A stretch of DNA of 64,000 nt from an uncultured Pseudomonadota bacterium. Its GTDB lineage: Bacteria; Pseudomonadota; Alphaproteobacteria; Rs-D84. Shown here piece by piece: positions 3,903 through 29,315 of the stretch. The translations under genes and the position numbers were made by a program. Numbering within the stretch: the stretch's first letter is position 1; each line of letters begins with the position of its first letter. The notes below the pieces were generated by a model. The model was not told the origin of the DNA, ran no database searches, and worked only from the letters and a program-made list of their open reading frames with translations. Where the stretch lies: positions 2,637 to 66,636 of the forward strand of contig CADAHF010000002.1 in assembly GCA_902787665.1 (NCBI GenBank), in the 5' to 3' direction.

Positions 3903-6642
<2,740 letters not shown>

Positions 6643-6645
6643 TCT

Positions 6646-7126: not shown

Positions 7127-8629
<1,503 letters not shown>

Positions 8630-8959
8630 TTAAAAAACTTGTGGTTTAAGTCCCGTGCATATTTAAACAAAGCTGACTTAATTTCAGTTCGTCTTTACAT
8701 ATATATATTCGCAAGACAAGTTTTAACGAGGTTTATATGTAAACCTACTACCTGTCCAGGATATGCACATTTGACTTAGTCAAAGTTTGGATATTCCAAA
8801 TTCAACTGTCTGCACATCCCTTCTTGAATTTTGATGAGCTGCTTTTATTCACAATGTGCGCAGTTTTATCGGTACCCCGTTCTTAGCGTTCGTTCCGTAA
8901 ACCGCAGAATTTCAGGGGTTGAGATACTTATATAAATGGTTCCCAACTTGAAAGCCCGT

Positions 8960-10433: not shown

Positions 10434-10445
10434 CAGCAAACAATT

Positions 10446-10472
10446 AAAACGCCCCACGGGGCGTTTTTTTTG
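10446..10472 (+). terminator. intrinsic terminator ACGCCC-cacg-GGGCGT + T8
   Basis: Hairpin at 10449-10464 followed by tttttttt, 13 nt after the stop of 9222..10433. Confidence 0.75.
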
Positions 10473-10486
10473 TTGATTAGTGATTA

Positions 10487-10514
10487 ATAATAAAAACCGC
10501 CCGTGTGGGCGGAA
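10487..10514 (-). terminator. intrinsic terminator CCGCCC-acac-GGGCGG + T-run (minus strand)
   Basis: Hairpin at 10497-10512. On the minus strand it is followed by TTTTTATTATT, directly 3' of 10518..11261. Confidence 0.7.
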
Positions 10515-10517
10515 TCT

Positions 10518-11261: not shown

Positions 11262-12949
11262 TGCGCCACTGTCTCACATTTTTTCTTATCTGTAGCGTTG
11301 CTAATCATAGAACAATCACACATATTGTAGCCATCGATCCATCTTCCACCCCAACCTGTACAATTAGCTTGTTTCATTAATAATATGTCATAGTTGGAAA
11401 GTCCGCCGTTCCCGGTTGTTGAAGATGTTGTTGTATTGTTTATGTTTGACGATGTTGTTCCGCTTACGGTTAATGGGCTGCGCACACCGTTATTCCATTC
11501 TTGTCTTGTCAAACAAACCTTTGTTGGCAATTTCTTTAATTCTGTTAATTTCTGCAAATCATCATTTTCACCAACACAGTATTTTATTGCATCTGCACCC
11601 TTGGCACTTGTTGGTGCATCTTGGGCAATAATGCGTTGCAGCGTTTCAATATCAATAGTTGCCTGTTTTTTACGATTGCGGAACAAGCCCGATGAATCAA
11701 GAATTTCCGACATACAACCAACACGTATGCGCGATTCTTCACCATACTCAGGATTTAACCAGTTATAGCGAACCTCTTCATCATTATTAATCATACCCAA
11801 CGGCTGACAACCACCATCGGACGGCGGAATAATTTTTCCAATTTCACACTTCTGTCCACCAATAACAAAGTTAGATTTTGATGGGTCTGATGTTCCATTT
11901 GGACAATTTGTTTTGGTATAGCGCAAATCTTGACGTTCTTCGCACAGATATTTGCCCCACACATTGCAAGACCCGTTCAACATCATATATATATCTGTAA
12001 TATCAACACCCACCGATTGCGCCAAAATTAACGCATCATACATTTCGTCCAAAACATTTTCATATGGATCAAAAAATGCCTCTGCTTTCTGTTTAAATAT
12101 TTTTACGCGCTTTGGTCCAGTACAATTATTTCCACGCGAATCACAGCCCGCATAGTCAAACGCATCAACCATTGTCGTCTTTAAAGTTTTTAATTGCGTT
12201 TCTGCATTTTCAACCGCAGATAAAATTTGACCAGAAATCTGTTCACGCGCCAAAACATCCGCCGAAACACCGCTTTGTGCCGCTGCAATTTGCGAATCGT
12301 TCAATGCACTTGTATTTGTCGCAGCTTGCACCGGTTGCGATGTCGCCGCTGCACGTGCCGCAGATGCCTCTGCTAATGCGTTTGCGGTTAATTCCCGCTG
12401 TTCCTCCAATGCGCTTTGTAATTGCGCCACGGTTTGTGCATTTTGCGCCGCCATTTGCGATTGCATTTGTTGCATCTGTTGTTGCATTTGCGCCAACTGT
12501 TGTGCACTTTGCTGTGCCGCCGCACTTGCCGCGGCATTTTGTGCCTCATTCGCAGCTGCATTTGCTTTGGCTGTGCTTTGCGCAACCAACTGTGCCGCGA
12601 TATATTGTGTTAATTCGTCACCATATTGTTTACATGCCGCATTTGATTGAACACAACCGTTTACAATCGAAAAAGTAACATTTAAATCAGTACAACCACC
12701 ATTGCTACATTTCGGCTGTGCACAGCGCAAAATAACCGCATTACAATTACCGAAATCAGCAGTTGCCGCCGGACCCGTTCCGACACTGCGGGAATTCATC
12801 ATATTGTTCCAACGTTCGTTATTTGTTGCGCCACTTTCGCCGTTATACGCGGTCAAATTATTACCCAATGTCGAAGATACAACGGCATGCACCGCACCAA
12901 AGGGTACGACACATAATGCCACCAACAAAAATCTGGCAATTTGTTTCAT
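11258..12949 (-). CDS. secreted cysteine-rich protein with Gln/Ala-rich coiled-coil region (563 aa)
   Basis: ORF 11258..13198 trimmed to MKQIARFLLVALCVVPFGAVHA (ATG 12949). The 83 upstream codons run through palindromic repeats and are judged spurious. It has a 6-Cys module and a long AQQ/MQQ tract. Confidence 0.7.
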   Translation of the reverse strand: MKQIARFLLVALCVVPFGAVHAVVSSTLGNNLTAYNGESGATNNERWNNMMNSRSVGTGPAATADFGNCNAVILRCAQPKCSNGGCTDLNVTFSIVNGCVQSNAACKQYGDELTQYIAAQLVAQSTAKANAAANEAQNAAASAAAQQSAQQLAQMQQQMQQMQSQMAAQNAQTVAQLQSALEEQRELTANALAEASAARAAATSQPVQAATNTSALNDSQIAAAQSGVSADVLAREQISGQILSAVENAETQLKTLKTTMVDAFDYAGCDSRGNNCTGPKRVKIFKQKAEAFFDPYENVLDEMYDALILAQSVGVDITDIYMMLNGSCNVWGKYLCEERQDLRYTKTNCPNGTSDPSKSNFVIGGQKCEIGKIIPPSDGGCQPLGMINNDEEVRYNWLNPEYGEESRIRVGCMSEILDSSGLFRNRKKQATIDIETLQRIIAQDAPTSAKGADAIKYCVGENDDLQKLTELKKLPTKVCLTRQEWNNGVRSPLTVSGTTSSNINNTTTSSTTGNGGLSNYDILLMKQANCTGWGGRWIDGYNMCDCSMISNATDKKKCETVAQ

Positions 12950-13027
12950 ATTCTCTCTTGAGCATAATTTTAACATAAAAAGTGCAAAGTGCAAAGTGGA
13001 AATTGCAAATAATGTGTGCCATACGGT

Positions 13028-13177
13028 TCTCTTACTTGTCACCCCGGTGCAGTCCGGGATCCACTGCTGTGTTTCTCTCTTACTCGTCATCCCCGCGAAG
13101 GCGGGGATCCACTGCTGCGCAGCAATAATCAATATTTGCCTGCGGCGCATTGGATACCGACCTGCGTCGGTATGACA
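13028..13177. repeat. three copies of a small palindromic element (two direct at 48-bp period, one inverted); flanks TGGAT..ATGAC conserved, stems differ
   Basis: Copies at 13028-13069 and 13076-13117 are about 80% identical, with hairpins CCCGG-tgcagt-CCGGG and CCCCGC-gaag-GCGGGG. 13151-13177 reads TGGAT-ACCGAC-ctgc-GTCGGT-ATGAC in the opposite orientation. Confidence 0.75.
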
Positions 13178-13179
13178 AT

Positions 13180-13308
13180 GACTACCCCGTCGCTTCACGC
13201 CACCCCTTCAATTAATGAAGGGGGTTTCGGTATGATTCCAGAAAACAAAAATCCCCTTCACTAGGTGAAGGGGTGGATTGTGAGCAAGGCGAACAAGACG
13301 GGGTAGTC
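13180..13308. repeat. 129-bp element bounded by 12-bp perfect inverted repeats and containing two copies of a CCCCTTCA/TGAAGGGG hairpin
   Basis: gactaccccgtc (13180-13191) and gacggggtagtc (13297-13308). Internal hairpins at 13203-13223 and 13253-13273. Confidence 0.7.
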
Positions 13309-13348
13309 TCCCACACCAATGGAGCAGGGGTCGCTTGCGCGATTAAAC

Positions 13349-13377
13349 AAAAAACCGCCCAAATGGGCGGTTTTTAT
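13349..13377 (-). terminator. intrinsic terminator ACCGCCC-aaat-GGGCGGT, bidirectional shape
   Basis: Hairpin at 13354-13371 with A-run before and T-run after, 14 nt 3' of the 1058-aa gene. Confidence 0.75.
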
Positions 13378-13390
13378 TATCGCGTTCTAA

Positions 13391-16300
13391 TTATTCCAAA
13401 CTTGTTGTGATGATGTCGCCGTACGAACCTGCCTCATCCCCACCGATATAACAAGTAATATGACGACCAACATTGTTCATGAATTCTTCGATAGCAGCTT
13501 TTTCTTCTGCATCAAGATTCGAACGTTGGATATCGCGTGTTGCCTTGTACATTAACAAGCCGCTTGCCAATGCGGTAACAGCCGTGGTTGTAGGTGTAAT
13601 CCAACCTGTCTTTTTCTGAACATGGTCGTTTTCACTAGTTTTTGACGTTAACTGTTCACAACGATTTTTCAACGCGTTCATTGCCGACAACATAGGTGCT
13701 TCAGAACTACTATTTGCAAGCACTTCCTTGCCATTATCTTTTTTGCATGCACTTGAACGTCCTTGGTTATCAAGTACACATGTGTAATTTTCCGCTGCTG
13801 TTTCTGCAACATTTGTGTTAACACCAGCTTCTTTTGCCTGACGTATTGCTTCTTGTACATAAGCTTTTCTTGTCGTGATAGAAGCACTGTCTGTTGCATT
13901 AAAACCATCTACTGCCGCGACACATTCTTGTGCTGCTTCACCAATGGTGGTTTTCTTGTTCTTTTCGTCCAAATTGGTCAGCCCCTTCATGACATTACCG
14001 TTAGTGATGCCTTCACCCAGGAAGTATCCACCAACACCGCCACCCAAGACACCAAGTGTTGTTGTCCAGAATGCTGTGCGGTCTTGCGATTTACGCATAT
14101 TTTCTGTTTTGTCATCGGCAACATCTTGCGCGATTCTTTTCAAATCACTTTCTGGAATCCAAGAACCACATGTGAAACTGTCACCGGTTGCAAAGTATGC
14201 GGTTGTCCATGATTTGTTCTTCATATATTCCTGAATCTTTTTATCGTCCGATTGCAAAGTGATACGAACACGACAGAAAGAACCATACAAATCATTACTT
14301 GCTGTAAAGGCGGTCTGTTTTAACCCATTGACTGTATAATCAGATGGCACACGATCACCCTTAAGCTTGACCCACATAAATGTGCTGGACATATCATTCT
14401 TGCCCATTATACCGCCATTGTTTGACGACATACACATATTTTGTTCCTTGGTCAACTTTGCGTTATATTTCGCTTGAGCTTCTCTCTCAATATCATAAAG
14501 CAAATCATTAAACAAAGTCTGTGCACCTGCATATACGTAATTATCCGGACTATAAACAAGCTGTGCAGAATTACCGTTACCACTCAGAACTTCATCTCCA
14601 TTTTCTGTCATGAATAAATTATTCCCATAGGCATCTGTCACAACACGTTGTGGATAAGAAGTAACATCATTATTCACAATTTCGTAACGACTTGTGATCC
14701 AACTATCCCTCACAGATGTTGCGTCACCCCACGATTCAGAAGTATTCGTGTTTCCTTTTAATTTCAATTTAGCAGTCTCGATCGCTAAGTGTTCTTCACA
14801 AGCTGATGCATTCTTGACGGTATCTAAACACAACCCTAACACAATTGTACGATCAAGCACACCATTGACTTTAAGCATAGATCTATTGTAGATTTCGCCT
14901 GCAGTATCACCAGTCCCATACGTACTTGATGCAGTAGCCCTTCCCAAATCAGACCAAATATCCGTCCGATTACGATAGCAATTCACATAATCATTACCGC
15001 ACATAGATTTAACACAACTTGTTGCCACAGATTGACATTGTTTTTTCATTTGCGCCAATGCGGCATCATTATAATTTGTTGCCAGCGCAGAATTCAACGA
15101 TGCAACAACACCGATAACATCGTTTTCGTTACCACCATTGTATGCTGGGAACAATGTATCAAATGCATCCTTGTTTATATAATTATATGTATATGGACCA
15201 GTTGCACTTGGGTTTGCAACAGCATACATACAATTTGTATCCGTATTCACAATCGCCGCGCAACCCAATTTGATTTCATCGTATGTTGCAGTGCCATTTA
15301 TGCTTTTATCCGCGCCACCATACACCAATGAATAACATGCCGCGCCAGAACCACCACCGCAAACACGCATCGCACAAGATTTGATTGTTTCGGTACACTT
15401 GTTTTTCGCCTGGGCATCGAATTTATCAACCAATTCTGCAATTTTTGTCTTCATTCCGGCATTCATACGCGATGCATACGCTTCAGCATAAACATCTTCC
15501 TGGTTTCCTTCATCGCGCAACTGGGCATTTGTTGGCATTTGACCATTACCGATAAATGTAGCATAGCAATATTTACTTGCCCCCACTGTTTCAAAACAAG
15601 CGTTTTTGATGTATGCCGCGATACTGGACTTGTTCACCATTGTTGTGACCAATTCAGTGGTCAATGGTGTGCCATTATTTATCGCATCAACAATATCAAC
15701 AACCGATTGGTCGCTATTTTCATAGCACTTGTATGGATTTTCCGCACACGCGCCCAAAATACATTGATCAACAACCTTGTAACAAGTTGACACCGCGTTA
15801 ACCGCCGCCAAAGCCGCACCTTCGTTAATCATTTCGCCAACGCGACTTGTTTTTGATGGCGCTGCTGTTAATGTGGACGAACCCAATAATTCTTTGACAC
15901 CATCGCCACTGCAACGCGCCAATGTAGAATCACAGAACACGCGCTGTTTACGGAATTCTTTATCCGTTGTGCAAAGTTCAAAATCATTTCCACAAACGGT
16001 ATCTTTCTTTAAGCACGATGTATAACGACGAACACATGTTGATGTATCATAACGATTTGCAATCGATGCCGCCGTTATCATTTGACCCAAAACACTGCCG
16101 TCGGTTGGGTATGTATAATCAGTGATTTCGCCATAAGTATTTTTCGCCGCAACATTAGACAATGCCGACACAACCGATGTTCCAAACAAACTTTCAACCC
16201 CAGACGCTGAACATTGGGCAAGTGTGCTTAAACACTTTGGCATTTGGGCATGGAACAAGATTTTGTTTGTGCATTCTTCAAAATTTTCGCCACACGCATC

Positions 16301-16567
16301 AGCCCCAGAAATACATTCACGATACGCATCAATACATTCGCTGTTTGCCATCAATGCCGCCGCCGTTGTTGTTGCCCCGGTTGCAGACGAAGTCGAAACC
16401 GAAGAACCAGCCGTCACCAATTTTGGCATCCGCGATGCAGTAGTCATACTGACACGCGCAGAATCCGTAGCGATTGTTCCGCGTGCCGTCGCCGCATATG
16501 CCGCCGGTATTGCAGACAAAAGTGCGATAAAACCAACTGTTTTTTTGAATAAATGCATTTGACTCAC
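13391..16567 (-). CDS. large secreted cysteine-rich protein with repeated 6-Cys modules and two C-terminal TM helices (1058 aa)
   Basis: ORF track. Signal peptide ..FIALLSAIPAAYAATA. Modules C78-G129 and C178-G229 are exactly 100 aa apart and alignable. Hydrophobic FWTTTLGVLGGGVGGYFLG and WITPTTTAVTALASGLLMY lie near the C-terminus. Confidence 0.75.
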   Translation of the reverse strand: MSQMHLFKKTVGFIALLSAIPAAYAATARGTIATDSARVSMTTASRMPKLVTAGSSVSTSSATGATTTAAALMANSECIDAYRECISGADACGENFEECTNKILFHAQMPKCLSTLAQCSASGVESLFGTSVVSALSNVAAKNTYGEITDYTYPTDGSVLGQMITAASIANRYDTSTCVRRYTSCLKKDTVCGNDFELCTTDKEFRKQRVFCDSTLARCSGDGVKELLGSSTLTAAPSKTSRVGEMINEGAALAAVNAVSTCYKVVDQCILGACAENPYKCYENSDQSVVDIVDAINNGTPLTTELVTTMVNKSSIAAYIKNACFETVGASKYCYATFIGNGQMPTNAQLRDEGNQEDVYAEAYASRMNAGMKTKIAELVDKFDAQAKNKCTETIKSCAMRVCGGGSGAACYSLVYGGADKSINGTATYDEIKLGCAAIVNTDTNCMYAVANPSATGPYTYNYINKDAFDTLFPAYNGGNENDVIGVVASLNSALATNYNDAALAQMKKQCQSVATSCVKSMCGNDYVNCYRNRTDIWSDLGRATASSTYGTGDTAGEIYNRSMLKVNGVLDRTIVLGLCLDTVKNASACEEHLAIETAKLKLKGNTNTSESWGDATSVRDSWITSRYEIVNNDVTSYPQRVVTDAYGNNLFMTENGDEVLSGNGNSAQLVYSPDNYVYAGAQTLFNDLLYDIEREAQAKYNAKLTKEQNMCMSSNNGGIMGKNDMSSTFMWVKLKGDRVPSDYTVNGLKQTAFTASNDLYGSFCRVRITLQSDDKKIQEYMKNKSWTTAYFATGDSFTCGSWIPESDLKRIAQDVADDKTENMRKSQDRTAFWTTTLGVLGGGVGGYFLGEGITNGNVMKGLTNLDEKNKKTTIGEAAQECVAAVDGFNATDSASITTRKAYVQEAIRQAKEAGVNTNVAETAAENYTCVLDNQGRSSACKKDNGKEVLANSSSEAPMLSAMNALKNRCEQLTSKTSENDHVQKKTGWITPTTTAVTALASGLLMYKATRDIQRSNLDAEEKAAIEEFMNNVGRHITCYIGGDEAGSYGDIITTSLE

Positions 16568-16640: not shown

Positions 16641-17591
16641 TTATGCTGATTCCAGTATATATTTTAACTCTGTCATGTCGTCTGGTAATTTTGCCTTGAA
16701 ATGCATTTTTTCACCAGTTATAGGGTGCACAAATTCCAGAACCTCTGCGTGCAACATTTGACCATCGTGCGTTTTGATAAAATCCAGCAAATCCGCGTTT
16801 TTGACCGACCCCAACCGTGATGATCCACGACCATAAACCCCATCACACAAAACCGGAAAACCATGCGCCGACAAATGTACACGAATTTGATGTGTTCGAC
16901 CAGTTAAAAGAGTGCATCTAAATTCACTTACCCCGACACGTGACCAGGCGTTTATACAATCGACCAAAGTGGTGGCTGGTTTGCCCCCTGTTTTAACCAT
17001 ACTCATTTTTTGGCGATTACGCGATGAACGCGCAATATTTCCAGTAATTGTCGCAGATTCCCAATTTGGCACACCCCAAACAAACGCGATATATTTTCGG
17101 GTTAAATCGTGCGCCATAAATGTTTTTACCAGTCCGTTATATGCCGCATTAGATTTTGCAAAAACCATAACCCCACTGGTGTCTTTATCAAGACGATGAA
17201 CAACACCTGGACGAACACTTCCCCCAGCCGATGCCAACGGTGTATGCGCCAATATATTTTGCACCAAAGTCCCAGTTTTATTCCCCGCAGACGGATACAT
17301 AACAACACCGCGCGGTTTATTCACAACAATAATATCATCGTCTTCGTATAAAATATCCAAATCAAAATCTGTTGAAACATTTTGTGCCGCAACCGTTGCT
17401 TGTTTTTCCGGAATTTCAACGGTTATTTTGTCCCCAGCACAGACTTTTTCAGAAAATTTTACATTTTTACCATTACGCAAAACTTGGAATTTTTGAATCT
17501 CACTGCGCGAAAATTCGGGCATAGAACCAGCCAAGAATTTATCAAGGCGCACACCAACACTTTCATCACTAACAACAAAATCACGAAACAA
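16641..17591 (-). CDS. rluD: RluA-family 23S rRNA pseudouridine synthase (RluD-like, S4 domain + catalytic HRLDKDTSG)
   Basis: VRLDKFLA S4 motif, HRLDKDTSGVMVFAK catalytic motif, TGRTHQIRVH. TTG start with AGGGG RBS. Confidence 0.85.
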   Translation of the reverse strand: MFRDFVVSDESVGVRLDKFLAGSMPEFSRSEIQKFQVLRNGKNVKFSEKVCAGDKITVEIPEKQATVAAQNVSTDFDLDILYEDDDIIVVNKPRGVVMYPSAGNKTGTLVQNILAHTPLASAGGSVRPGVVHRLDKDTSGVMVFAKSNAAYNGLVKTFMAHDLTRKYIAFVWGVPNWESATITGNIARSSRNRQKMSMVKTGGKPATTLVDCINAWSRVGVSEFRCTLLTGRTHQIRVHLSAHGFPVLCDGVYGRGSSRLGSVKNADLLDFIKTHDGQMLHAEVLEFVHPITGEKMHFKAKLPDDMTELKYILESA

Positions 17592-17601
17592 TATGCTGCC
17601 C

Positions 17602-18072
17602 CTATTTATATTCGTCCCAATCTTTGCCTATTTTGCATTTGGACATGTCGATTTTTAATTCGCGACCATCGGCATCAACTGGACAAGTCAACATTCCGGT
17701 ATTTGTTGCATCGTCTGCATCACGTCCGGCATGGCGATATGAAAAATTAATCTCTGTCGGCGCATAAACACATGCAATGCGTAAATCCCCATCGTGATTA
17801 TTGCGCGGACCAAACCAAACACGCACACCTTCGCCCAAACCATAGCACGGGAAACCGTCCAAATAGTATAAAATCAAACCTTTGGACCCGATTAATTTAG
17901 AATCTGTTTTGAAAACGCCACGATATTCGTTTAACAACAAACCGGTTATACCCTGCCAATCTGTACTTGTTGAAAAAATGCTGACGCGTGGCGCTGGCGC
18001 CGGTTGGTTATCGGCAATCGCAAAATTTCCGCATATCAAAATTCCACATAATGCAACAATTACCTTCTTCAT
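17602..18072 (-). CDS. small secreted hypothetical protein
   Basis: ORF 17602..18099 trimmed to MKKVIVALCGILICGNFAIA (ATG 18072, GGGGGA RBS). No family recognised. Confidence 0.6.
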   Translation of the reverse strand: MKKVIVALCGILICGNFAIADNQPAPAPRVSIFSTSTDWQGITGLLLNEYRGVFKTDSKLIGSKGLILYYLDGFPCYGLGEGVRVWFGPRNNHDGDLRIACVYAPTEINFSYRHAGRDADDATNTGMLTCPVDADGRELKIDMSKCKIGKDWDEYK

Positions 18073-18076
18073 CCCG

Positions 18077-18583
18077 TTATTCCCCCATTTGCATTTCAAC
18101 CGTTATCTTTGCCACACCATCTGTTGTACCAGATAACACATGGTTAAATTCAACCGTTTCCCCCGCATCCAATACCGGCACAGAAGGCAAGAATTTTTGT
18201 TTAGAAATCGCATTCCCAGATGCATCCATTGATACAAACACCAGGTCTGGCACCCCATAAATTTGCGCGGTTCTATTTACAACCGCACCCCGTACAACAT
18301 AATGCGCAACACCATCTGCACCCTTAACCGTTTTTATTTCGCTAATTTCTGCGACAAGTGGTTTATGCGCAACATCGTCCATTCGATTACTTACCACAAC
18401 CGCAACAACAAACACAATTGCCGACAACAATGCACACGCCGCCGCAATAAACATCATTATTGCGCCGCGTCGTGACGGTGTTGACACAACCCATGTATGC
18501 CCACAAACCGCACATTTAACCGGCGTTGTTGGCGCACGATCAATCGTATATTCTGTTTTACAAAAATCGCATTTTATTTTCAT
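18077..18583 (-). CDS. MJ0042-type zinc-ribbon membrane protein with DUF3426-like C-terminal domain
   Basis: MKIKCDFCKTEYTIDRAPTTPVKCAVCGHTW has two CxxC pairs. This is followed by one TM helix and a beta-rich domain (architecture recognised from memory). Confidence 0.65.
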   Translation of the reverse strand: MKIKCDFCKTEYTIDRAPTTPVKCAVCGHTWVVSTPSRRGAIMMFIAAACALLSAIVFVVAVVVSNRMDDVAHKPLVAEISEIKTVKGADGVAHYVVRGAVVNRTAQIYGVPDLVFVSMDASGNAISKQKFLPSVPVLDAGETVEFNHVLSGTTDGVAKITVEMQMGE

Positions 18584-18606
18584 AAGTTTTTATATACCAC
18601 AAATTA

Positions 18607-19914
18607 TCACAATTTCAACAAACTATATTTAGCGCGCACTTTATTTTGAATTTCTTGTATCGCATTCATATAATCCGCAACCGTTGCATTTTTGTTTGCC
18701 GCAACCGCCGAAAAAGTGCGCCCAGCCACGGTTGACTTGTCTGCCTCTTTATACACAATCAAAGTCGCCATACGTTCTAATTCAGGAAAAGAAACATCAT
18801 AAAAATTCGCTGTTTTATTTTTCACATCCCAATAATATTTATCGTTCACAGAATCTACAACTTTATCACGCACAACAAGACGCGGTGTAATTGATCCAGA
18901 AAAACCAACTGTTGTATAAACAGCACTTATGCGTCCACCAGTCATGTCAAGACGTTGATTTATATTTAATACCGCCGCTTTAGAAGAATTAGACAATCCA
19001 GATAATGACAAAGTATTTGTCCATAAATCTTTTACTGTGAAATTTGAAAACTTTCCAGTGTCTGCCAACGACAATGTTCCCGCAATTTCCATCGTTTTAG
19101 AATCAGCAGACAAATTTCCAACACATGTCGCACTTTTCGTTTCCAGTGCACTGTCAATTGTTGTACGATTTGAAAACACAACCTTGTCTGCCGCAACAGT
19201 AATCGATTTTAAATTTTCATCAAATTGCGCACCGAATGCATCAAAGTATTTTGTTGCAACAATATCATGTCCCCCAAGGTTTAATGGCGACAACATTTTT
19301 GCGTCGTCTGCATTGTCTGACGGTTCACGCCACAGGTAAAGAGCATTATCGCGTCGTACCGATGTTGTCGTAATGATTCCATCTGGAACATTTACACCAA
19401 TATCAATCGCATCTGTATGCCATGCACCAAATGTTCCGTATGCATGGGTTCCTTCGATAAATCCCATATTATCGCCACCAACCTCTACAATTTGTCTTGT
19501 GCGCAACGGCGATATAGTTGTATCAGACATAACAACCACGCCCTGAAGCGTTGCTTGACCAGTAGAATCAGCAGACTTCAAAACACGTAATTGATATTTA
19601 TTACCATCTTTTTCGATTATACTTTCTGCAATACCATATTCTGCTAAATCGGCAATATTAACACGCGTTATACTTTTGCCCGCCACATTTAATAATGCAT
19701 CACGATTTAATACAATATACCGTTCAAGTGCATTTTGAACATCTTGCATTTGACGCGCCACAGTAATATTTTCGGCACGCACCACTGAATCTTGTTGATA
19801 TTTGAACAAAAACGGCAAAACCAGCGCAACAATTGCAACACTCATCAATAACTCTATCAGCATGCCCCCATGTTGATTACGAATTGCAGAAAAAATACTA
19901 TTCTGTGATTTCAT
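18607..19914 (-). CDS. large prepilin-type N-terminus protein, paralog 3 (435 aa)
   Basis: N-terminus ..IRNQHGG/MLIELLMSVAIVALVLPFLF (Gly, then Glu, then hydrophobic helix with Pro). Shares YL(W/H)R..D...L(N/D)(L/M)GG..I block with the two upstream genes. Confidence 0.7.
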   Translation of the reverse strand: MKSQNSIFSAIRNQHGGMLIELLMSVAIVALVLPFLFKYQQDSVVRAENITVARQMQDVQNALERYIVLNRDALLNVAGKSITRVNIADLAEYGIAESIIEKDGNKYQLRVLKSADSTGQATLQGVVVMSDTTISPLRTRQIVEVGGDNMGFIEGTHAYGTFGAWHTDAIDIGVNVPDGIITTTSVRRDNALYLWREPSDNADDAKMLSPLNLGGHDIVATKYFDAFGAQFDENLKSITVAADKVVFSNRTTIDSALETKSATCVGNLSADSKTMEIAGTLSLADTGKFSNFTVKDLWTNTLSLSGLSNSSKAAVLNINQRLDMTGGRISAVYTTVGFSGSITPRLVVRDKVVDSVNDKYYWDVKNKTANFYDVSFPELERMATLIVYKEADKSTVAGRTFSAVAANKNATVADYMNAIQEIQNKVRAKYSLLKL

Positions 19915-21122
19915 TATTGTTCACCATATCCCGTCGGTATAACATTTTTCCAATCGCTTGACATTAATGCTTCAAATTCGTGTTCATTTGGCATTGATGG
20001 AATCTTTGCGCGCGAAATCCTAAATCCTGTAAAACTTGGTGGCACGGTTGATGGAAACGCCCACGCACCAAGTTTTATTGGCGAATTTGTTGATAGCATA
20101 AGTTCCCCAGATACCGTCAAACCAAAATTATCATAAAACATTATTTCTGTGGTTGATAAAAAAGGAGTGTAAACCGTTCCTGCCTTGACCCCAGCAAAAC
20201 CACTTATTGTACGCAAAGAATCTGTTTTCAAAATCATATCTTTCGAAACATTTAAGGAATCTGATACTGTTGCCCGATCGGTAATTATGCGCCCAGATGT
20301 TGAAAAACCATTGTTGTTTAGTTTATTTGCATAAATATTACGAAAGCCAATAATATCGTCTGTAACACGCAACGAACCAATCGAAACATTGTTTCCGGTC
20401 ATATTAGCGCCGTTTGAAAAATAAATTGTATTTGCAACTAAATCATTTGATGTCACAAAAGTCGATGTCACATCTTTGATACGCGATGCAGATGCAAATA
20501 CCCCACCAACATCATATATGTTGTAACCACCCATATTTAAATCACGTAACATCACATTTAATTCGTCATCACCAGAAGTTCCACGATGTAAATACTTTGT
20601 TTTGTCTTCGCCCGACACATTACGCGTTATACGATATACTAAATCCCCAGATTCAAATTCTGGCGCGCTAACCGCCCAACTGCGACCATACGCAATACCA
20701 TCACTATCAACAATCGCCGCATCGTCACCAATATGATGTGCAATATTTGCAGTGTGCAGATTTGTCGAACCAAATTTAAACGCCAAATACACATCTGTTA
20801 CTGATGCACCATTTACAAGATATTTATCAATAAATCCCGCATTCGCCCCAGTTGCAACCATATCCAAATCTGTATCATTCATTTTTATTTGTGCAACATC
20901 TGGCCATGTATCTTGATTTAAACGAATAAAGTTTAACACATCTGGACGCAGGTTCGTTATATCACGCGCAACGGCCATATCGCGAATATTACTATTTGTT
21001 TCGGCAATTTGAGAATACACAAAAGGCATGGCAACCGCAACAATTGCCATTGACATCAGTACCTCTAAAATACTGGCGCCACGATTTATACTGTCAAAGA
21101 TTTTTGTTTTAATTACAGTCAC
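19914..21122 (-). CDS. large prepilin-type N-terminus protein, paralog 2 (402 aa)
   Basis: GTG start. N-terminus ..SINRG/ASILEVLMSMAIVAVAMPFVY (Glu at +5). Stop overlaps the ATG of the next gene. Confidence 0.7.
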   Translation of the reverse strand: MTVIKTKIFDSINRGASILEVLMSMAIVAVAMPFVYSQIAETNSNIRDMAVARDITNLRPDVLNFIRLNQDTWPDVAQIKMNDTDLDMVATGANAGFIDKYLVNGASVTDVYLAFKFGSTNLHTANIAHHIGDDAAIVDSDGIAYGRSWAVSAPEFESGDLVYRITRNVSGEDKTKYLHRGTSGDDELNVMLRDLNMGGYNIYDVGGVFASASRIKDVTSTFVTSNDLVANTIYFSNGANMTGNNVSIGSLRVTDDIIGFRNIYANKLNNNGFSTSGRIITDRATVSDSLNVSKDMILKTDSLRTISGFAGVKAGTVYTPFLSTTEIMFYDNFGLTVSGELMLSTNSPIKLGAWAFPSTVPPSFTGFRISRAKIPSMPNEHEFEALMSSDWKNVIPTGYGEQ

Positions 21123-22467
21123 TGTTCCCCGCCAACAAACATTGTTTGATATCTATTCTTTTTTCCAATCGTTGCCAATATACATACTGACAAATTATAT
21201 ACTGCGCCAACGAATGTTGATTATACACACCATCAAGCGATGATATTATCGCACGACACGAAACTGTTTTTGAATCATCCGCTGATGGTGTCGCTAAAAT
21301 TTCAAAACCCGTATTATCAATTGTTGAAACATACGCATCTGGCAACAACGATGTTCCAGCCGGACGAATATCCAACACAACAGCACCCGACCCACCACGC
21401 GACAATGAATCAGATGTTTGGTCACGCAATGTGATATTTGATGTGTGTATAGTAGATGTTTCTATACCGCTGTTAGCATTGTATTCAAGTGTATTCGCAT
21501 TTATATACACATCTTGACCACGCGATGCATTTATAAAAGAATCTATTTCTAATCTTTCTACATTAAGGTTTATATTGCTTGATATAACATTACCTTTGAT
21601 AATCCATTTTTCTGGACCATAAAAACTGGTTCTGTTTGCAGACATTGCAAAATCATATACCCCAGCAGAATTTAATGTTATGTTCCCAGTATCACCATAA
21701 CGAGATATTGTTTTTGTTGAAACATTATCTACAACCATTGTTCCACGCGTCAAAGACAATGAACTTTCACCTGTTTTAGATTGGAAAATCGTTTTATCTG
21801 CAACCATTGTTGAAATTTTATTACGAACACTTCTGTCCGTTTCAACGCCATTAATAGTAAGAGACCCCACTTCCAATCCGTCAAATTCGCCACGACGCGC
21901 GATTGCCCGACCAATATTTGAAATTGAATTTTCACCCATATCTAAATCAACCAAAAATGCACTTGTATCGACATCGGGTTCATTTCTGCGCACAACATCA
22001 GAATAAATTGTTTCCAATGGAACACCAATTTGAATTGTTCCGTCACCCACATCAAAAGCATAAAAACCAATACGTCGCACCAGTTCGCCACGCAACATTT
22101 CATTTAAATCACCGCCTGTCAATTCAACATATGCTGAAATTTCTTCGGCATTTTTATCAATAACCAATGCTATATCTTGTCCCAACGCCGTCTTTGCCAC
22201 AAACCCAAGTGGCAATCCATACGGTTCCAAAATATCAGCAAAAGAATTACCTGCAATTACCGTTCGGTTATATGGCAAATTAGACACATTTTCACGAATA
22301 AAAATACGTGCCACAGTTGTTGCATTATCAACTTTTTGCGTTGTTGCATACATGCGCGCATTATTTTCACGGCCCATAAGTTTTATCGCAAAAAAGGGAA
22401 TGAACATAAACAGTAACGTTAATGCCAACAATGCCTGCAACAAAAAGTTTCCGCGGCTATTTTGCAA
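21109..22467 (-). CDS. large prepilin-like N-terminus protein, paralog 1 (~452 aa; ORF track extends to 22521)
   Basis: Preferred start is TTG 22467, preceded by GGAGGGGGG. This gives leader MQNSRG/NFLLQALLALTLLFMFIPFF (Gln instead of Glu at +5). The 22521 TTG has no RBS. Confidence 0.6.
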   Translation of the reverse strand: MQNSRGNFLLQALLALTLLFMFIPFFAIKLMGRENNARMYATTQKVDNATTVARIFIRENVSNLPYNRTVIAGNSFADILEPYGLPLGFVAKTALGQDIALVIDKNAEEISAYVELTGGDLNEMLRGELVRRIGFYAFDVGDGTIQIGVPLETIYSDVVRRNEPDVDTSAFLVDLDMGENSISNIGRAIARRGEFDGLEVGSLTINGVETDRSVRNKISTMVADKTIFQSKTGESSLSLTRGTMVVDNVSTKTISRYGDTGNITLNSAGVYDFAMSANRTSFYGPEKWIIKGNVISSNINLNVERLEIDSFINASRGQDVYINANTLEYNANSGIETSTIHTSNITLRDQTSDSLSRGGSGAVVLDIRPAGTSLLPDAYVSTIDNTGFEILATPSADDSKTVSCRAIISSLDGVYNQHSLAQYIICQYVYWQRLEKRIDIKQCLLAGNSDCN

Positions 22468-22624
22468 GATGTACCCCCCTCCTACACCCCTTAGAATAGC
22501 AATACAAAAAAAAGATTGCAATCAGTTTTAAGATACTTTATTATTACGCATGTTTAAGAACGTAGGCGCAATAAAATTGATATTGTCACCTGCAAAAATG
22601 TTTTCCATAAAAAAGAAAAAAAAT

Positions 22625-22921
22625 ATGCAAAACAAAAAAAATCAAACGTCTAATGTTGGGCAAATGATACAACGCTGTCATAAATGGCGTCAAAAAAGAA
22701 AACAATACATTGACCTGGCGCGTCAAACAAGTGACGAAGTGGAACGCGAACGCTTACTGCAAGCGGCGGAACACTATGGTCGTATTGTTAATGCCGAACA
22801 GGACAAGATTGATTCTTCACGCGGTGGATCGGCTGAAAAAATCCCAGAAATACCAGAAAACACCGAATCTGGTGACGAAGAAGAAATCCCATTACCAGAC
22901 TTTATTGAAAATTTGAAATAA
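22625..22921 (+). CDS. DUF4167-like protein
   Basis: YIDLARQTSDEVERERLLQAAEHYGRI matches the remembered DUF4167 core (..Y..LA....D....E...QHAEHY.R). Start moved to MQNKKNQ. Confidence 0.55.
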   Translation: MQNKKNQTSNVGQMIQRCHKWRQKRKQYIDLARQTSDEVERERLLQAAEHYGRIVNAEQDKIDSSRGGSAEKIPEIPENTESGDEEEIPLPDFIENLK

Positions 22922-22994
22922 ATCATTTTTACGACATATTTATTGTTGAAATTTGACTTATGTTTGCTATTCTGTTCCAAAAGGAATTTTTCAC

Positions 22995-24521
22995 ATGGAT
23001 AGCAACTATACCGTTTTAGCAAGAAAATATCGCAGTCAAGATTTTGCATCATTAATTGGCCAGGATGTTTTGGTAAAAACACTTACCACTGCAATCAACA
23101 CTGGTCGTATTGCACACGCGTATATTTTCACTGGAATTCGTGGAACTGGAAAAACTAGTACTGCACGTATTTTGGCCAAGGCATTGAATTGTTTGTCCTC
23201 TGATGGACCAACTGCAACACCATGTGGGGTTTGTGAAAATTGTCGTGCAATCGCTGCGGGTCAACATATCGATGTTATGGAAATTGACGCTGCATCACAT
23301 ACCGGTGTTGATAATATGCGTGAAATTTTGGACGCGGTCCAATATCGTCCAACAAACGGCAGATATAAAATTTACATCATTGACGAAGTTCACATGTTAT
23401 CAATAAGTGCTTTTAACGCACTGCTTAAAACATTGGAAGAACCACCTGCACACGTTGTGTTCATTTTAGCAACAACCGATATTCGCAAGGTTCCTGTTAC
23501 AATTTTATCGCGTTGCCAACGTTTTGATTTGGTGCGCGTTCCAGTTGAAACCTTAAAAAAGCATTTTGCAAACATTGCCGAAAACGAAAAGATTGAATTG
23601 TCTGATGCTGCAAACGAATTGTTGGCACGTGCCGCTGATGGTTCTGTGCGCGATGGTTTATCATTACTTGACCAGGCAATTGCTCAAACTGGTGGGCACG
23701 TTGATGAAACAGCAGTGTTAAATATGCTTAAACGCGCAGATCGCGGTGTTGTTACCGGGTTAATGGAAACAATATTGTCTGGTGACACTGCTGCTGCATT
23801 GGAACGCGTTGATGAAATATATAACAATGGCGCAGACCTTTCTATGTTATTAACAGACATGATGGAATGGACACATTGGGCAACACGCATGCATCCCGCA
23901 TTGCATGCTGGGGATTCAACATCGGCACCATATACGGCTGACCAGCGCACTAAGATTCGCAATATAAATTCACAAATAACATTAAACACTCTTTCGCGCA
24001 TATGGCAGGTTATGGTTGCCTCTGTGGCAGAGATGCAGGCATCCAGCAATCAAAAACAATGCTTTGACATGCTGATTGTGCGTTTAATGCACATTGCTGA
24101 ATTACCGTCGGTTGCAGAAATTATTAATAAACAAACAACCACACAAACGGCACCGAAACCATCTGTGGCACCTGCACCGAAAAAGACAGAAATTACATCG
24201 GCAACAGATTTGGCGGCGGCATTACAATCTGACAAAGAAATATTACTATATTCATATTACACAACGAATATCGAAGTATCTGAATTTACGCCGGGCAAGA
24301 TTGTATATTTTGATCGTGGTGATGACACAGAATTTGAAAAAAAATTATCAATATGGTTGCGTAACAAAACAGGTTCCGCATGGACATTGGATCGCAACAT
24401 AAAATCAGAACATGCACAAACTGTGACCGAACAAAAGCGTCAGGAAATTGCATCTGACCCAATGGTTGCAGACGCAATGAGCTTATTCGAAGATGCGGAA
24501 ATTGTATCTTCTACAAAATAA
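22995..24521 (+). CDS. dnaX: DNA polymerase III subunit gamma/tau
   Basis: YRSQDFASLIGQDVLVKTL..AHAYIFTGIRGTGKTSTARILAKALNC, Zn module CGVCENC, DEVHML, SRCQRF. Start moved to MDSNYTVLARKYR. Confidence 0.9.
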   Translation: MDSNYTVLARKYRSQDFASLIGQDVLVKTLTTAINTGRIAHAYIFTGIRGTGKTSTARILAKALNCLSSDGPTATPCGVCENCRAIAAGQHIDVMEIDAASHTGVDNMREILDAVQYRPTNGRYKIYIIDEVHMLSISAFNALLKTLEEPPAHVVFILATTDIRKVPVTILSRCQRFDLVRVPVETLKKHFANIAENEKIELSDAANELLARAADGSVRDGLSLLDQAIAQTGGHVDETAVLNMLKRADRGVVTGLMETILSGDTAAALERVDEIYNNGADLSMLLTDMMEWTHWATRMHPALHAGDSTSAPYTADQRTKIRNINSQITLNTLSRIWQVMVASVAEMQASSNQKQCFDMLIVRLMHIAELPSVAEIINKQTTTQTAPKPSVAPAPKKTEITSATDLAAALQSDKEILLYSYYTTNIEVSEFTPGKIVYFDRGDDTEFEKKLSIWLRNKTGSAWTLDRNIKSEHAQTVTEQKRQEIASDPMVADAMSLFEDAEIVSSTK

Positions 24522-24537: not shown

Positions 24538-24996
24538 ATGAAACAAGAATCTGGTCGTTCTTTGATTGAAATTTTGGGTGTATTGGCTATTGGCGCAGTT
24601 ATGTCTGTGGCAACAATATCTATGTATCGCAGTGTTCGTACAACACAATTACGTACAATTGCAACCGCAGAATTAGAACAGATTGTAAAAAACGCAAAAA
24701 TATTAACTGGTGCACACGGCACATACGAAGGATTGTCTGTTGATTATCTGGTAAAATCTGGTGCAATAAAAAATAATCTGCCCCCGATTGGTGGTGCAAA
24801 CTGGTCCGTCACCCCAAGTTTTGATGGGACATCATTTTCAATCAATTTAACAGATTTGTCATCTGGGGAATGTGAATACTTTGCAATAAAACAACCGACA
24901 TGGGCTGATTCTATTTTAATAAATGGTATCCAGGTTGACGGAACACCAAATTGCTTTTCAACCAAAACCAATATTGTTTCATTTGTTGTGAAATAA
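24538..24996 (+). CDS. short type IV pilin / pseudopilin-like protein (152 aa)
   Basis: MKQESG/RSLIEILGVLAIGAVMSVATISMY has a short basic leader, Gly, Glu at +5 and a hydrophobic helix. C-terminal Cys pair (SGECEY...TPNCF) fits a pilin disulfide loop. GGGGGGA RBS. Confidence 0.75.
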   Translation: MKQESGRSLIEILGVLAIGAVMSVATISMYRSVRTTQLRTIATAELEQIVKNAKILTGAHGTYEGLSVDYLVKSGAIKNNLPPIGGANWSVTPSFDGTSFSINLTDLSSGECEYFAIKQPTWADSILINGIQVDGTPNCFSTKTNIVSFVVK

Positions 24997-24997: not shown

Positions 24998-25678
24998 TTG
25001 ATGAAAATAAAAAATTTATTTTTAGCGCTTATTTGCATCACCGTTTCGGGATGCACAACATATCACAGTCCAAATCGTGATACTTGGGGTGCATATCTTC
25101 GCGGCGCCAGTTTTGATAATATGACAGAAACCACACGAACCGCAAAACGTCCCGTGTATCTTGGGGCTGGTGGTCGCACATTGTCAATGGTCGAAACAAA
25201 CAATAAACTTGAATATGGGGATAAAGCATCTAACGACAACGCAGCGGCTGTTGCCTATATGTCAAAGTTAGAATTTGCATTATATGATGCACTTCGCAAA
25301 CCAGGTATTTCTGTCCAACGTGCCGGTACAGATGTTGTTGTGACTATCGTGCGTGATGCGATTATGGAACTGGCCGTTGCTGATATATCGCCAGATGGCG
25401 CAGATACTTTAAAAACAATATCTAAAATATTACAAGAATACGATGCAACATTTATCGAAATCGCGGGCTATACCGATGCGACACGCGATAAACATGCATC
25501 AAGTGCATTGTCAACCGACATGGCCATGCGCACAGCGGTATTTTTTGCCCAGCACGATATTATTCCGCAACGTATGTTTATAATTGGCCGCGGCTCTGCA
25601 CGACCAATCGCCGCCCAGGATGATATCGGTCGTTTAACCAATCGCCGTGTTGAAATCCGTATTTCGCCAGCACGATAA
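24998..25678 (+). CDS. OmpA/MotB-domain lipoprotein
   Basis: Lipobox LICITVSGC. C-terminal IEIAGYTD..S..LS...A..V.......I...R....G.G...P.........NRRVEI is an OmpA_C-like motif. Confidence 0.8.
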   Translation: MMKIKNLFLALICITVSGCTTYHSPNRDTWGAYLRGASFDNMTETTRTAKRPVYLGAGGRTLSMVETNNKLEYGDKASNDNAAAVAYMSKLEFALYDALRKPGISVQRAGTDVVVTIVRDAIMELAVADISPDGADTLKTISKILQEYDATFIEIAGYTDATRDKHASSALSTDMAMRTAVFFAQHDIIPQRMFIIGRGSARPIAAQDDIGRLTNRRVEIRISPAR

Positions 25679-28561: not shown

Positions 28562-29314
28562 TTATCTTTGTCTTTTAAGCCAACGTTCCGCTTTTGTAAT
28601 ATATTGACGTGCAAGTGAAATATCAAATTTATTATCTGTCTTTAATTTGCCTTCGGCATCAATCCAGATGTCTTCACGATTCTTTGGCACGACCGATGAA
28701 ATCTTTCTTAAATTTTTCACAACATTGTCTGGCGACATTCCACCTGAATATCCCATTGGCACATTTTCAAACACTGGTTTATTCCAGGTGTCTGGACTTA
28801 AACCACGTCCACCAGATGCATCATAAAGCAACGAGAATTTCGCACGCATTTCGTGCAATACCCATGTGGCATTTTTTGTCCGATCATTATATTGAATAAT
28901 AAATTCATGATCATCGTTATGCATAAATAATTTTTTCACAGCATCATAGTTTATATCACGAACGGCAGCATTCGACATATTTAATTGCCACCGTTTAACC
29001 AGTGGCGCAAAGCCAAGATTTTTACGATAAAGACCAAAAAATTCCCTTAATTCCATTGGAATTTCACCAGTGCGACAGATTTCTTCGCACCATTCTTGAT
29101 TTACGTGTGCAGCCAAATTTATATCATGAGCGTCTTTTACGCAACAACGGCACAATTCATGGAACCATTCGTTTCGTGGCATACCAGGGAATGCTTTTGA
29201 TGGATGCAATTGAACCGCAATTTCAACACGCGGCGACATTTCTGCCAGTTTTACAATATCATGAATATCATTAAATTCACGTGGATCCGAGCATGTGATG
29301 TATCGTAGTCGCAT
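28562..29314 (-). CDS. hypothetical protein with TrpF (phosphoribosylanthranilate isomerase)-like C-terminal motif pattern
   Basis: LLYDASGGRGLSPDTW....GYSGGMSPDNV.......WIDAEGKL resembles the TrpF pattern LLD..GG.G..FDW...LAGGL.P.NV...GVDV.SGVE. Start moved to MRLRY (ATG 29314, 2 nt after the rlmN stop). Confidence 0.35.
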   Translation of the reverse strand: MRLRYITCSDPREFNDIHDIVKLAEMSPRVEIAVQLHPSKAFPGMPRNEWFHELCRCCVKDAHDINLAAHVNQEWCEEICRTGEIPMELREFFGLYRKNLGFAPLVKRWQLNMSNAAVRDINYDAVKKLFMHNDDHEFIIQYNDRTKNATWVLHEMRAKFSLLYDASGGRGLSPDTWNKPVFENVPMGYSGGMSPDNVVKNLRKISSVVPKNREDIWIDAEGKLKTDNKFDISLARQYITKAERWLKRQR

Positions 29315-29315
29315 T

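Follow-up and report, generated by a model that had tools for sequence, protein, structure and literature searches.

PilV proteins are accessories of conjugative plasmids and genomic islands, where they choose the mating partner through sugars on its surface. Other large minor pilins of the type IVb class are TcpB of Vibrio cholerae and CofB of enterotoxigenic Escherichia coli (∼420–520 amino acids (aa)), in which an N-terminal pilin domain precedes beta-rich C-terminal domains, and which are reported to form a trimer at the pilus tip and to start assembly. In the published ternary complex of the GspK-GspI-GspJ cap, GspK, which lacks a glutamate at position 5 (Glu5), sits at the top; like FimU and PilVWX of type IVa pili, these are co-encoded minor subunits that prime or cap a fibre. 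In the type IVb thin pili of IncI1/IncI2 plasmids such as R64 and TP114, PilV (Shufflon_N; Pfam PF04917; ∼430–480 aa) is a shufflon-encoded minor pilin and tip adhesin that binds the lipopolysaccharide of recipient cells, and consists of a 345-aa constant region followed by a variable C-terminus (PMC9045228).

Here we examine three tandem genes, designated A, B and C, within a 64-kb stretch of DNA (‘the window’) from Candidatus Enterousia, an uncultured, genome-reduced gut bacterium (∼0.75–1.0 Mb) of the alphaproteobacterial order Rs-D84. Its lineage lacks complete glycolysis, the TCA cycle and respiratory chains as well as standard nutrient transporters, and may rely on partner organisms (PMC12306168). 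The sequence read comprises ∼74 kb of this genome (the window and a further 10 kb) and 10 kb on each side of the trio in ∼80 species-representative genomes of relatives (the best 80 of 159 matches). An earlier note on this DNA had proposed that the trio forms either a tip or adhesin complex of a pilus-like fibre, or a new pilin-anchored surface system. The first proposal proves the better reading, and now rests on homology to PilV as well as on the N-terminal motif; nothing in the data requires the second. We consider it probable that A, B and C are diverged PilV paralogs forming a fixed tip or initiation complex of a type IVb-like pilus in Candidatus Enterousia.

The three neighbouring, overlapping open reading frames (ORFs) on the minus strand that the earlier note had described are confirmed by the ORF list: A at 21109–22467 (452 aa), B at 19914–21122 (402 aa) and C at 18607–19914 (435 aa). 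The ORF containing A extends to 22521, but the likeliest start codon is the TTG at 22467, yielding a protein that begins MQNSRG, since a Shine-Dalgarno sequence (AGGAGG, 22478–22483, minus strand), read directly from the DNA, lies 10 nt upstream of this codon and most A orthologs are 451–452 aa long. The overlap is 14 nt between A and B (GTGACTGTAATTAA) and 1 nt between B and C (TAATG).

By their sequences, A, B and C are prepilin-type proteins, each carrying a class III (prepilin peptidase) signal with an invariant glycine at −1 and a hydrophobic alpha-1 helix, as had been claimed. Their leaders are MQNSRG (A), MTVIKTKIFDSINRG (B) and MKSQNSIFSAIRNQHG (C), and the mature N-termini would begin NFLLQ, ASILE and GMLIE, respectively. 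The glutamate noted earlier at +5 in two of the proteins, and the glutamine in the first, also hold across orthologs: G6, Q11 and P24 are invariant in A (n = 113 sequences), G15, E20 and P33 in B (n = 31), and G16, E21 and P34 in C (n = 120), with Gly(−1) and Pro(+18) kept without exception in each family. A also contains four invariant cysteines near its C-terminus (C404, C426, C443 and C451). Among 48 homologs only 16–45% identical to C, Glu(+5) is invariant and Gly(−1) is at least 90% conserved, and the family profile matches type IV pilins of solved structure along their alpha-1 helices (best E 6.4e-7). In searches with N-methylation and pilin models, which the earlier note had recommended, B reaches 12.7 bits against PF07963 (cutoff 21.2), a short model that divergent pilins often match below threshold, A and C show no PF07963 match in the Pfam scan, and NCBIfam contains no family matching any of the three.

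The paralogy of the trio described earlier is real but weak, as judged by alignment, and confined to the N-terminal 180–290 residues. BLASTP aligns B with C at E = 4e-10, A with C at 4e-4 and A with B at 8e-4, and hhalign links C to B (98.1%, E 7e-14), C to A (93.5%, E 2e-7) and B to A (86%, E 5e-6). Asn, Ser, Thr and Gly make up 35–42% of the middle regions, in agreement with the composition originally reported. Structure prediction, also suggested by the earlier note, was informative for the N-terminus: AlphaFold2 predicts a long helix (residues 13–69 in C, 7–59 in A) followed by beta strands, with pLDDT 70–88 in that domain. The models are otherwise poor (mean pLDDT 54.6 and 56.3, falling to ∼30 in the middle regions), and a Foldseek search of the PDB with them gave no match at E < 0.1, so that these models lend no structural support to a fold for the presumed adhesin part.

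The earlier note named no known minor pilin family to which most of each protein could be assigned. Profile comparisons now link all three to PilV/Shufflon_N, and A, B and C are, on this evidence, remote homologs of that family. Against a PilV alignment, hhalign gives 98.9% for C (E 2.6e-17, 322 columns, residues 12–350), 97.2% for B (E 4.3e-11, residues 12–213) and 95.2% for A (E 2.8e-8, residues 1–197), and an HMM built from four PilV sequences finds C at E 2.9e-20 and B at E 1e-9. The shared domain spans ∼200–350 residues and includes the motif YLxR-(8)-N.M...LdMGGn.I.N; in C, homology runs across the entire PilV constant region and is followed by a conserved ∼85-aa C-terminal domain. Among 1.84 billion cluster representatives, only 313 clusters matched a profile built from C orthologs; they include bona fide Shufflon_N proteins (P0498, P0506 and P0484, scoring 158, 118 and 90 bits against PF04917, cutoff 27.5). 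The first of these, P0498, itself matches pilV genes annotated on 2815 plasmids. In a tblastn search of 7.3 Gb of plasmid sequence with C, all matches listed were annotated pilV genes (best E 2e-4). An alphaproteobacterial PilV, from an Acetobacter plasmid, matched 45 C orthologs by phmmer (best E 2.4e-10). The relationship falls below the Pfam model itself, A, B and C remaining unmatched by PF04917 (gathering threshold 27.5 bits) at E up to 1. Profile searches thus reach an already described family, at the level of a superfamily, which is one of the outcomes that the earlier note had itself named as refuting. Nor are the proteins unusually large, as first thought: their 400–450 aa are normal for PilV family members, such as that of plasmid pV408 (a 1437-nt gene, ∼478 aa).

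The trio resembles PilV in its prepilin leader with Gly(−1) and Glu(+5), its size (about 400–480 aa), its homologous constant region and its pairing with a PilS-type pilin. In contrast to PilV, which is a single gene with switchable 3′ cassettes on a conjugative element, the trio consists of separate paralogous genes in tandem, one of which (A) encodes Gln at +5, on the chromosome amid the housekeeping genes of a reduced genome. The locus has no shufflon: no homolog of the Rci recombinase was found in 1.69 Mb of loci, and no sfx-like inverted repeats in 17500–23000. Whereas the PilV C-terminus is variable, those of the trio are conserved between species, save for the last ∼50 residues of B; this counts against an adhesin, since diversifying selection usually makes adhesins look different. 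Compared with TcpB and CofB, which are also large type IVb minor pilins with an N-terminal pilin part, the trio comprises three paralogs rather than a homotrimer of one gene product, and a PDB search with the family profiles gave no match to these or other structures beyond the alpha-1 helices. The Gsp cap and FimU/PilVWX provide a parallel for several co-encoded minor subunits, but show no sequence or profile match to the trio, whose members are far larger and all mutual paralogs.

PilV is encoded beside the pilL–pilU machinery, and the trio is not. As the earlier note had observed, the 64-kb window contains no PilB/C/D/Q, Gsp or Tad gene; the search combined Pfam scans, the L004/L005 gene tables and phmmer queries from two sets of type IVb pil proteins. 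Genes for an ATPase, a platform protein, a secretin or an A24 peptidase were found neither in the window nor in the further 10 kb, and in the ∼80 relatives no gene of these four kinds lies within 10 kb of the trio. Homologs of PilN/O/P/Q/R/T/U were likewise absent from the window and from the 10 kb around the trio in 85 other loci, and Acetobacter pil queries against 86 loci detected no pil machinery homolog within 10 kb of the trio.

The view that there were no pilus genes in sight is nevertheless not quite right. A conserved gene 2 kb from the trio (24538–24996, plus strand) encodes a small PilS-like type IV pilin of 152 aa (MKQESG|RSLIEILGV...), identified from its ORF and an ortholog alignment in which G6, E11, C112 and C139 are invariant. 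PF08805 (PilS) matches 11 of 15 orthologs (best E 2.6e-5) and N_methyl 12 of 15, making this member of the type IVb major-pilin family a candidate fibre subunit. The pilin gene adjoins dnaX in 71 of 82 loci. Directly downstream is a gene for a 226-aa OmpA-family peptidoglycan-binding lipoprotein (24998–25678, plus strand; OmpA PF00691 E 3.1e-9, YiaD-like 1.4e-26), which adjoins the pilin gene in 71/82 loci and whose tie to the pilin genes is positional only.

Two further genes accompany the trio on the minus strand. Beginning 23 nt past C, a gene at 18077–18583 encodes a 168-aa zinc-ribbon protein (Zn_ribbon_4, MJ0042_CXXC and FxLYD matches) that combines an MJ0042-type zinc ribbon at its N-terminus with a single transmembrane helix and a beta domain in the periplasm; the gene follows C in all 82 loci and in the distant locus L086. 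Next comes p165 (17602–18072, within the ORF 17602–18099), encoding a secreted protein of ∼156 aa (156 aa in the L001 ortholog) with no known domain, present in 82/82 loci with its order unchanged, and with a homolog after the zinc-ribbon gene in L086. Both proteins may be accessories of the A-B-C module. The check for co-occurrence across related genomes that had been proposed for the trio shows that the order A-B-C is kept in 82 of 82 loci, that the entire block A-B-C-zinc-ribbon-p165 is identical in order throughout this set, and that it is retained, between different flanking genes, in a lineage that is 44% identical. The trio appears, from this conservation, to be a chromosomally fixed core-genome operon in Candidatus Enterousia. 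The other genes around it are housekeeping genes. A VirD4/TraG-type coupling protein of 735 aa is encoded ∼4.4 kb past the window end.

Similarity to pilins need not imply a fibre, and two readings dispense with one. A, B and C could be pilin-derived proteins whose helix serves as an uncleaved inner-membrane anchor or as part of another envelope machine, spanning the periplasm or exposed on the surface in a lineage that has lost its type IV pilus machine, with a type IV secretion system as a possible user. Such a reading fits the lack of machinery both in the 74 kb read here and in the 10 kb on each side of the trio in ∼80 relatives; it also fits the small genomes (only 0.75–1.0 Mb), the nearby coupling protein, and the fact that type IV pili are unreported for Rs-D84, the genome survey recording them only for another lineage, UBA9783 (PMC12306168). 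We regard it as unlikely: Gly(−1) and a charged Glu(+5) within the hydrophobic helix are invariant in very divergent homologs and in the small pilin, a pattern that is difficult to account for unless a peptidase processes the proteins and they pack into a filament. In addition, a distinct fibre subunit of the PilS type has been kept. Pilus genes, moreover, are often dispersed over bacterial chromosomes. Also unlikely, in our estimate, is that Candidatus Enterousia lacks any machine for assembling type IV pili or type II secretion systems and keeps four pilin-type genes (three PilV-like, one PilS-like) for a machine-independent or differently coupled role, possibly as a contact apparatus, perhaps with its type IV secretion system, that attaches a metabolically dependent bacterium to partner cells; if true, this would be a pilin-derived surface system outside known pilus pathways.

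Other pilin-based machines offer alternative assignments for the trio. As a set of different minor subunits, one of which, like GspK, lacks Glu5, A, B and C might be type II secretion minor pseudopilins (GspH/I/J/K-like) capping a pseudopilus in the periplasm instead of a pilus outside the cell, and the C ortholog P0015 is indeed named ‘type II secretion system protein’ in its NCBI record. Yet no NCBIfam or Pfam model of a Gsp pseudopilin matches any of the three, even with E as high as 1, every significant profile or sequence link leads to PilV and none to Gsp proteins, the sizes suit PilV better than Gsp minor pseudopilins (120–330 aa), and no GspD/E/F gene lies nearby, making this assignment improbable. 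Tad/Flp systems, the commonest pilus type in Alphaproteobacteria, would be a natural expectation for this host, and TadG-like proteins are sometimes large. Membership of the TadE/F/G-like pseudopilins is nonetheless highly improbable: Pfam and NCBIfam yield no match to TadE (PF07811), TadG or any other Tad protein, the adjoining pilin is PilS-like and 152 aa long, in contrast to Flp pilins (∼60 aa), and the homology found is to PilV.

For the favoured PilV-type tip complex, we propose that A, B and C are cleaved after the invariant glycine by a prepilin peptidase whose gene would lie in another part of the genome, and that contacts between the hydrophobic alpha-1 helices would then hold the three mature proteins together as a tip or initiation complex. 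The apex might belong to A, since it is the only one of the three without Glu5; the model is the GspI-J-K cap, in which the topmost subunit, GspK, has no partner for a Glu5 salt bridge; both the A-B-C heterotrimer and this position of A are things that we only infer. The PilS-like pilin would polymerise below the complex, and the divergent C-terminal halves would be displayed at the fibre tip, binding a surface ligand of another cell. Three fixed paralogs would thus stand where IncI plasmids vary one PilV through DNA inversion. The trio is probably used for cell attachment.

These findings would assign ∼300 protein clusters now unnamed or ‘hypothetical’ in databases to the PilV family. In these bacteria, PilV-type proteins appear as vertically inherited core genes, in a fixed order across ∼80 genomes (the best 80 of 159 matches). 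If the proposed tip complex is correct, a conjugation adhesin would have been turned into a chromosomal attachment device, and if the trio does grip other cells, it would offer a specific candidate mechanism by which these uncultured bacteria of the gut hold on to partners or to host surfaces.

The trio consists of three consecutive minus-strand genes, A, B and C, whose open reading frames (ORFs) occupy positions 21109-22521, 19914-21122 and 18607-19914, respectively. The overlap between A and B is 14 nt long (GTGACTGTAATTAA), and B and C have one base in common, within TAATG. Read from its first possible start, A would encode 470 amino acids, which probably overstates its length; a TTG at 22467 lies 10 nt behind an AGGAGG, and A orthologs mostly comprise 451-452 residues, so we take A to be a protein of 452 amino acids starting MQNSRG, as an earlier note made from the sequence alone had proposed. 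In each protein, a short basic leader with a terminal glycine precedes a hydrophobic helix, and three positions of this region are invariant among orthologs: G16, E21 and P34 in C (n = 120), G15, E20 and P33 in B (n = 31), and G6, Q11 and P24 in A (n = 113). Thus B and C contain a glutamate at +5, glutamine is fixed at this position in A, and all three have a proline at +18. Together, the reading frames, their overlaps and the invariant Gly(-1) confirm the tandem of prepilin-type genes claimed in that note, and the difference at +5 that it read from one genome holds across orthologs. The middle parts of the three proteins are 35-42% Asn/Ser/Thr/Gly.

Family databases reveal little about these proteins: in Pfam, A has no match, the one match of B is an N-methylation motif below threshold (12.7 bits, cutoff 21.2), C yields nothing relevant, and NCBIfam has no match for any of them. 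A profile of C orthologs run against 1.84 billion cluster representatives retrieved a small family of 313 clusters (E <= 1e-3), whose members range from ~400 to 1240 amino acids and have the first ~230 residues in common. Across 48 aligned members, whose identity to C is just 16-45%, Glu(+5) never varies, while Gly(-1), Pro(+18) and three other positions are at least 90% conserved. Eight of these 48 are Shufflon_N proteins (PF04917; cutoff 27.5 bits), including the homologs P0498 (158 bits), P0506 (118 bits) and P0484 (90 bits), and P0498 matches genes annotated 'shufflon system plasmid conjugative transfer pilus tip adhesin PilV' in 2815 plasmids. The ~230-residue N-terminal module also heads proteins of 900-1240 amino acids (representatives among P0449-P0510), whose N-termini are highly uniform (..GSMMVEALAMLGLISMVTPVLYKKAAERTTELQDIN..) and whose remaining parts match no Pfam domain.

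In profile-profile comparisons with an alignment of one IncI-type PilV, P0498, P0506 and P0484, C matched over 322 columns, its residues 12-350 covering the whole PilV constant region (probability 98.9%, E = 2.6e-17), B over residues 12-213 (97.2%, E = 4.3e-11) and A over residues 1-197 (95.2%, E = 2.8e-8). An HMM built from only those four sequences detected C (2.9e-20) and B (1e-9) among the ORFs of the window. All listed tblastn matches of C in 7.3 Gb of plasmid sequence were annotated pilV genes (best E 2e-4), and an Acetobacter plasmid PilV matches 45 Enterousia C orthologs (best E 2.4e-10); a motif common to PilV and the trio proteins, in B TKYLHRGTSGDDELNVMLRDLNMGGYNIYD, can be discerned by eye. 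The PilV link is therefore reached from several independent directions. Judged by profile and sequence comparison, A, B and C are remote homologs of PilV, the minor pilin and tip adhesin of type IVb thin pili, which resolves the puzzle of large prepilins not assignable to any known minor pilin, as the earlier note had described them. Nor are they unusually large: the pilV gene of plasmid pV408 has 1437 nt (~478 amino acids), and TP114 PilV comprises a 345-residue constant part and a variable end of 69-113 residues (PMC9045228), so 402-452 amino acids is an ordinary size for this family.

Paralogy within the trio is confined to the N-terminal 180-290 residues, and is detected for B-C (BLASTP E 4e-10, hhalign probability 98.1%), A-C (4e-4, 93.5%) and A-B (8e-4, 86%). 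AlphaFold2 models based on 120 (C) and 113 (A) orthologs have a mean pLDDT of 54.6 and 56.3, respectively, with confidence usable only at both ends and a middle of 160-220 residues near 30. For C, the model comprises an N-terminal helix (13-69) with strands (pLDDT ~70-85), a middle (188-348, ~30) and a C-terminal domain (350-435, 60-78); for A, the helix (7-59) with strands reaches 75-88, the middle (153-373) ~30, and the C-terminal domain (375-445) 86-90. The modelled N-terminal domains fit a pilin-like head, though this is not proof. Foldseek searches of both models against the PDB returned nothing with E <0.1, the top matches (NanoLuc, kinases) being noise. Among solved structures, profiles of C orthologs, the diverse family and PilV matched pilin alpha-1 helices only (best E 6.4e-7, diverse-family profile on type IV pilins), and no solved PilV-like globular domain was detectable by sequence.

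The earlier note had seen no pilus or type II secretion machinery nearby; this stands for the machinery in the window, but a pilin gene 2 kb from the trio, across dnaX, had been missed. It encodes a 152-amino acid protein (24538-24996, plus strand) starting MKQESG/RSLIEILGV, in whose orthologs Gly(-1), Glu(+5) and two cysteines are invariant, and 11 of 15 orthologs match PF08805 PilS (best E 2.6e-5), the type IVb major-pilin family that partners PilV. The locus therefore has a candidate fibre subunit besides three PilV-like subunits.

Searches for assembly proteins with phmmer covered ~1.7 Mb of loci: R64-type PilL through PilU found nothing in the ORFs of the window and 85 other loci, Acetobacter plasmid PilP, PilO2, ATPase and GspF nothing in the window and 86 other loci, and no ATPase, platform protein, secretin, PilO/P or A24 peptidase was detected in the window or related loci. 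Two window ORFs considered as hidden peptidases (28562-29353 and 30413-31234) were rejected, as neither is a polytopic membrane protein. A distant locus with a different genomic context (L086) has no machinery adjoining its trio, and a further 10 kb of the source contig holds housekeeping genes and a VirD4-type coupling protein, without pilus genes. This 735-amino acid VirD4/TraG-type protein (T4SS-DNA_transf, TrwB_AAD_bind, TraG-D_C; 14400-16607 of contig locus L005, ~4.4 kb past the window end) has only housekeeping genes as neighbours, which suggests that the genome encodes a type IV secretion system with dispersed genes. A shufflon at the trio was rejected: no Rci-type recombinase was found in the window and loci examined, nor any sfx-like repeats at the trio, where the sole long direct repeat is formed by the homologous alpha-1-encoding parts of B and C.

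For each of A, B and C, the databases contain ~900-1060 relatives; the nearest 120 per protein are of equal length, 56-100% identical, and come from uncultured gut and rumen Alphaproteobacteria. A scan of one genome per species gave 159 matches, the best 80 of which carry the title 'Candidatus Enterousia' or 'Alphaproteobacteria bacterium' and derive from the guts of animals and humans. Co-occurrence of the trio, a check the earlier note had proposed, is borne out by gene order: the 82 related loci follow a single order of skp, ompA-like, pilin, dnaX and DUF4167 genes, then A, B, C, a zinc-ribbon protein gene (18077-18583, minus strand), p165 (17602-18072, minus strand) and rluD, any missing genes being accounted for by contig ends. 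In L086, whose C-like protein is only 44% identical, nusA-infB replaces dnaX on the left flank, yet DUF4167-A'-B'-C'-zinc-ribbon-p165-rluD is kept, and A' again has glutamine at +5; because they follow C' even in this lineage, the zinc-ribbon and p165 genes may be part of the module. The small DUF4167-like gene (22550-22921, plus strand; 6771-7136 in L086) is always divergent and just upstream of A, despite the differing other flank, and might have a common regulatory region with the trio.

Enterousia genomes (order Rs-D84) measure ~0.75-1.0 Mb and lack complete glycolysis, TCA cycle, respiratory chains and standard transporters, and the bacteria may depend on partner organisms (PMC12306168); that paper mentions type IV pilus genes for another lineage only, and the literature on Enterousia and Rs-D84 makes no statement about them in this one. 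The window fits this picture of a reduced genome, with a complete rRNA operon (5S, 23S, tRNA-Ile, 16S; 3696-8630, minus strand) and a dense array of housekeeping genes (rluD, dnaX, skp, lpxD, fabZ, rlmN, lptD, lptF/G, nusA, infB, truB, mutS, pnp, der, infC, parAB, rsmG, recF). According to ARAGORN and Rfam, the 16S-23S spacer contains only tRNA-Ile, without the usual accompanying tRNA-Ala.

Just downstream of rluD, four ORFs (9222-16567) encode Cys-rich secreted or membrane proteins without Pfam or NCBIfam matches: 403 amino acids (9222-10433, plus strand), and 247 (10518-11261), 646 (11258-13198) and 1058 (13391-16567) amino acids on the minus strand. The largest occupies the same position in 66 of the 82 related loci, and all four could be additional components of the cell surface in this bacterium with its reduced genome. 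A 42-nt GC-rich palindromic element (..GTCATCCCCGCGAAGGCGGGGATCCACTGCTG) occurs as two tandem copies at 13028-13117, within the 5' end of the 646-amino acid frame when that frame is taken from its earliest start codon (GTG, 13198); the long N-terminal extension that results may not in fact be coding. Nested inverted repeats (28 nt, 86% complementary; 13180-13308) span the start of this frame and the gap before the 1058-amino acid gene; both sets look like REP-type repeats or terminators.

Prepilin-type N-termini, homology to the PilV tip adhesin, a PilS-like pilin and an overlapping, conserved operon make a tip or adhesin complex of a pilus, as the earlier note had suggested for proteins it could not assign, the best reading of the trio. 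A pilin-derived membrane anchor without a fibre would suit the tiny genome, the lack of a visible machine in the loci searched and the silence of the literature on pili in this lineage, but sits poorly with Gly(-1) and Glu(+5) invariant in very divergent homologs, and with retention of a fibre pilin. For type II secretion minor pseudopilins speaks one database record, which names a C ortholog 'type II secretion system protein', but no Gsp model matches and all homology detected points to PilV. Tad pseudopilins likewise find no matching model, and the adjoining pilin is not Flp-like.

For a tip complex, a peptidase encoded elsewhere would cut after the invariant glycine, and A, B and C would associate through their alpha-1 helices to form a tip or initiation complex; the PilS-like pilin would polymerise on it. 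A would be placed at the apex because it lacks Glu5, a residue that, to our knowledge, only the topmost subunit can do without, as GspK does in the GspI-J-K cap. The divergent C-terminal halves would bind a surface ligand. Conservation of the C-termini between species, except for the last ~50 residues of B, speaks against a classical adhesin arms race.

The novelty lies in the arrangement: Enterousia has three fixed tandem paralogs in place of a shufflon, one of the three carries Gln5, and the trio is inherited vertically as part of the core genome in a gut lineage with reduced genomes, with no pilus operon or conjugative element visible beside it. Variants of R64 PilV are known to bind particular lipopolysaccharide sugars on the recipient cell (PMC9045228). 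In a bacterium that may depend on partners, attaching to other cells would be a sensible role for the trio.
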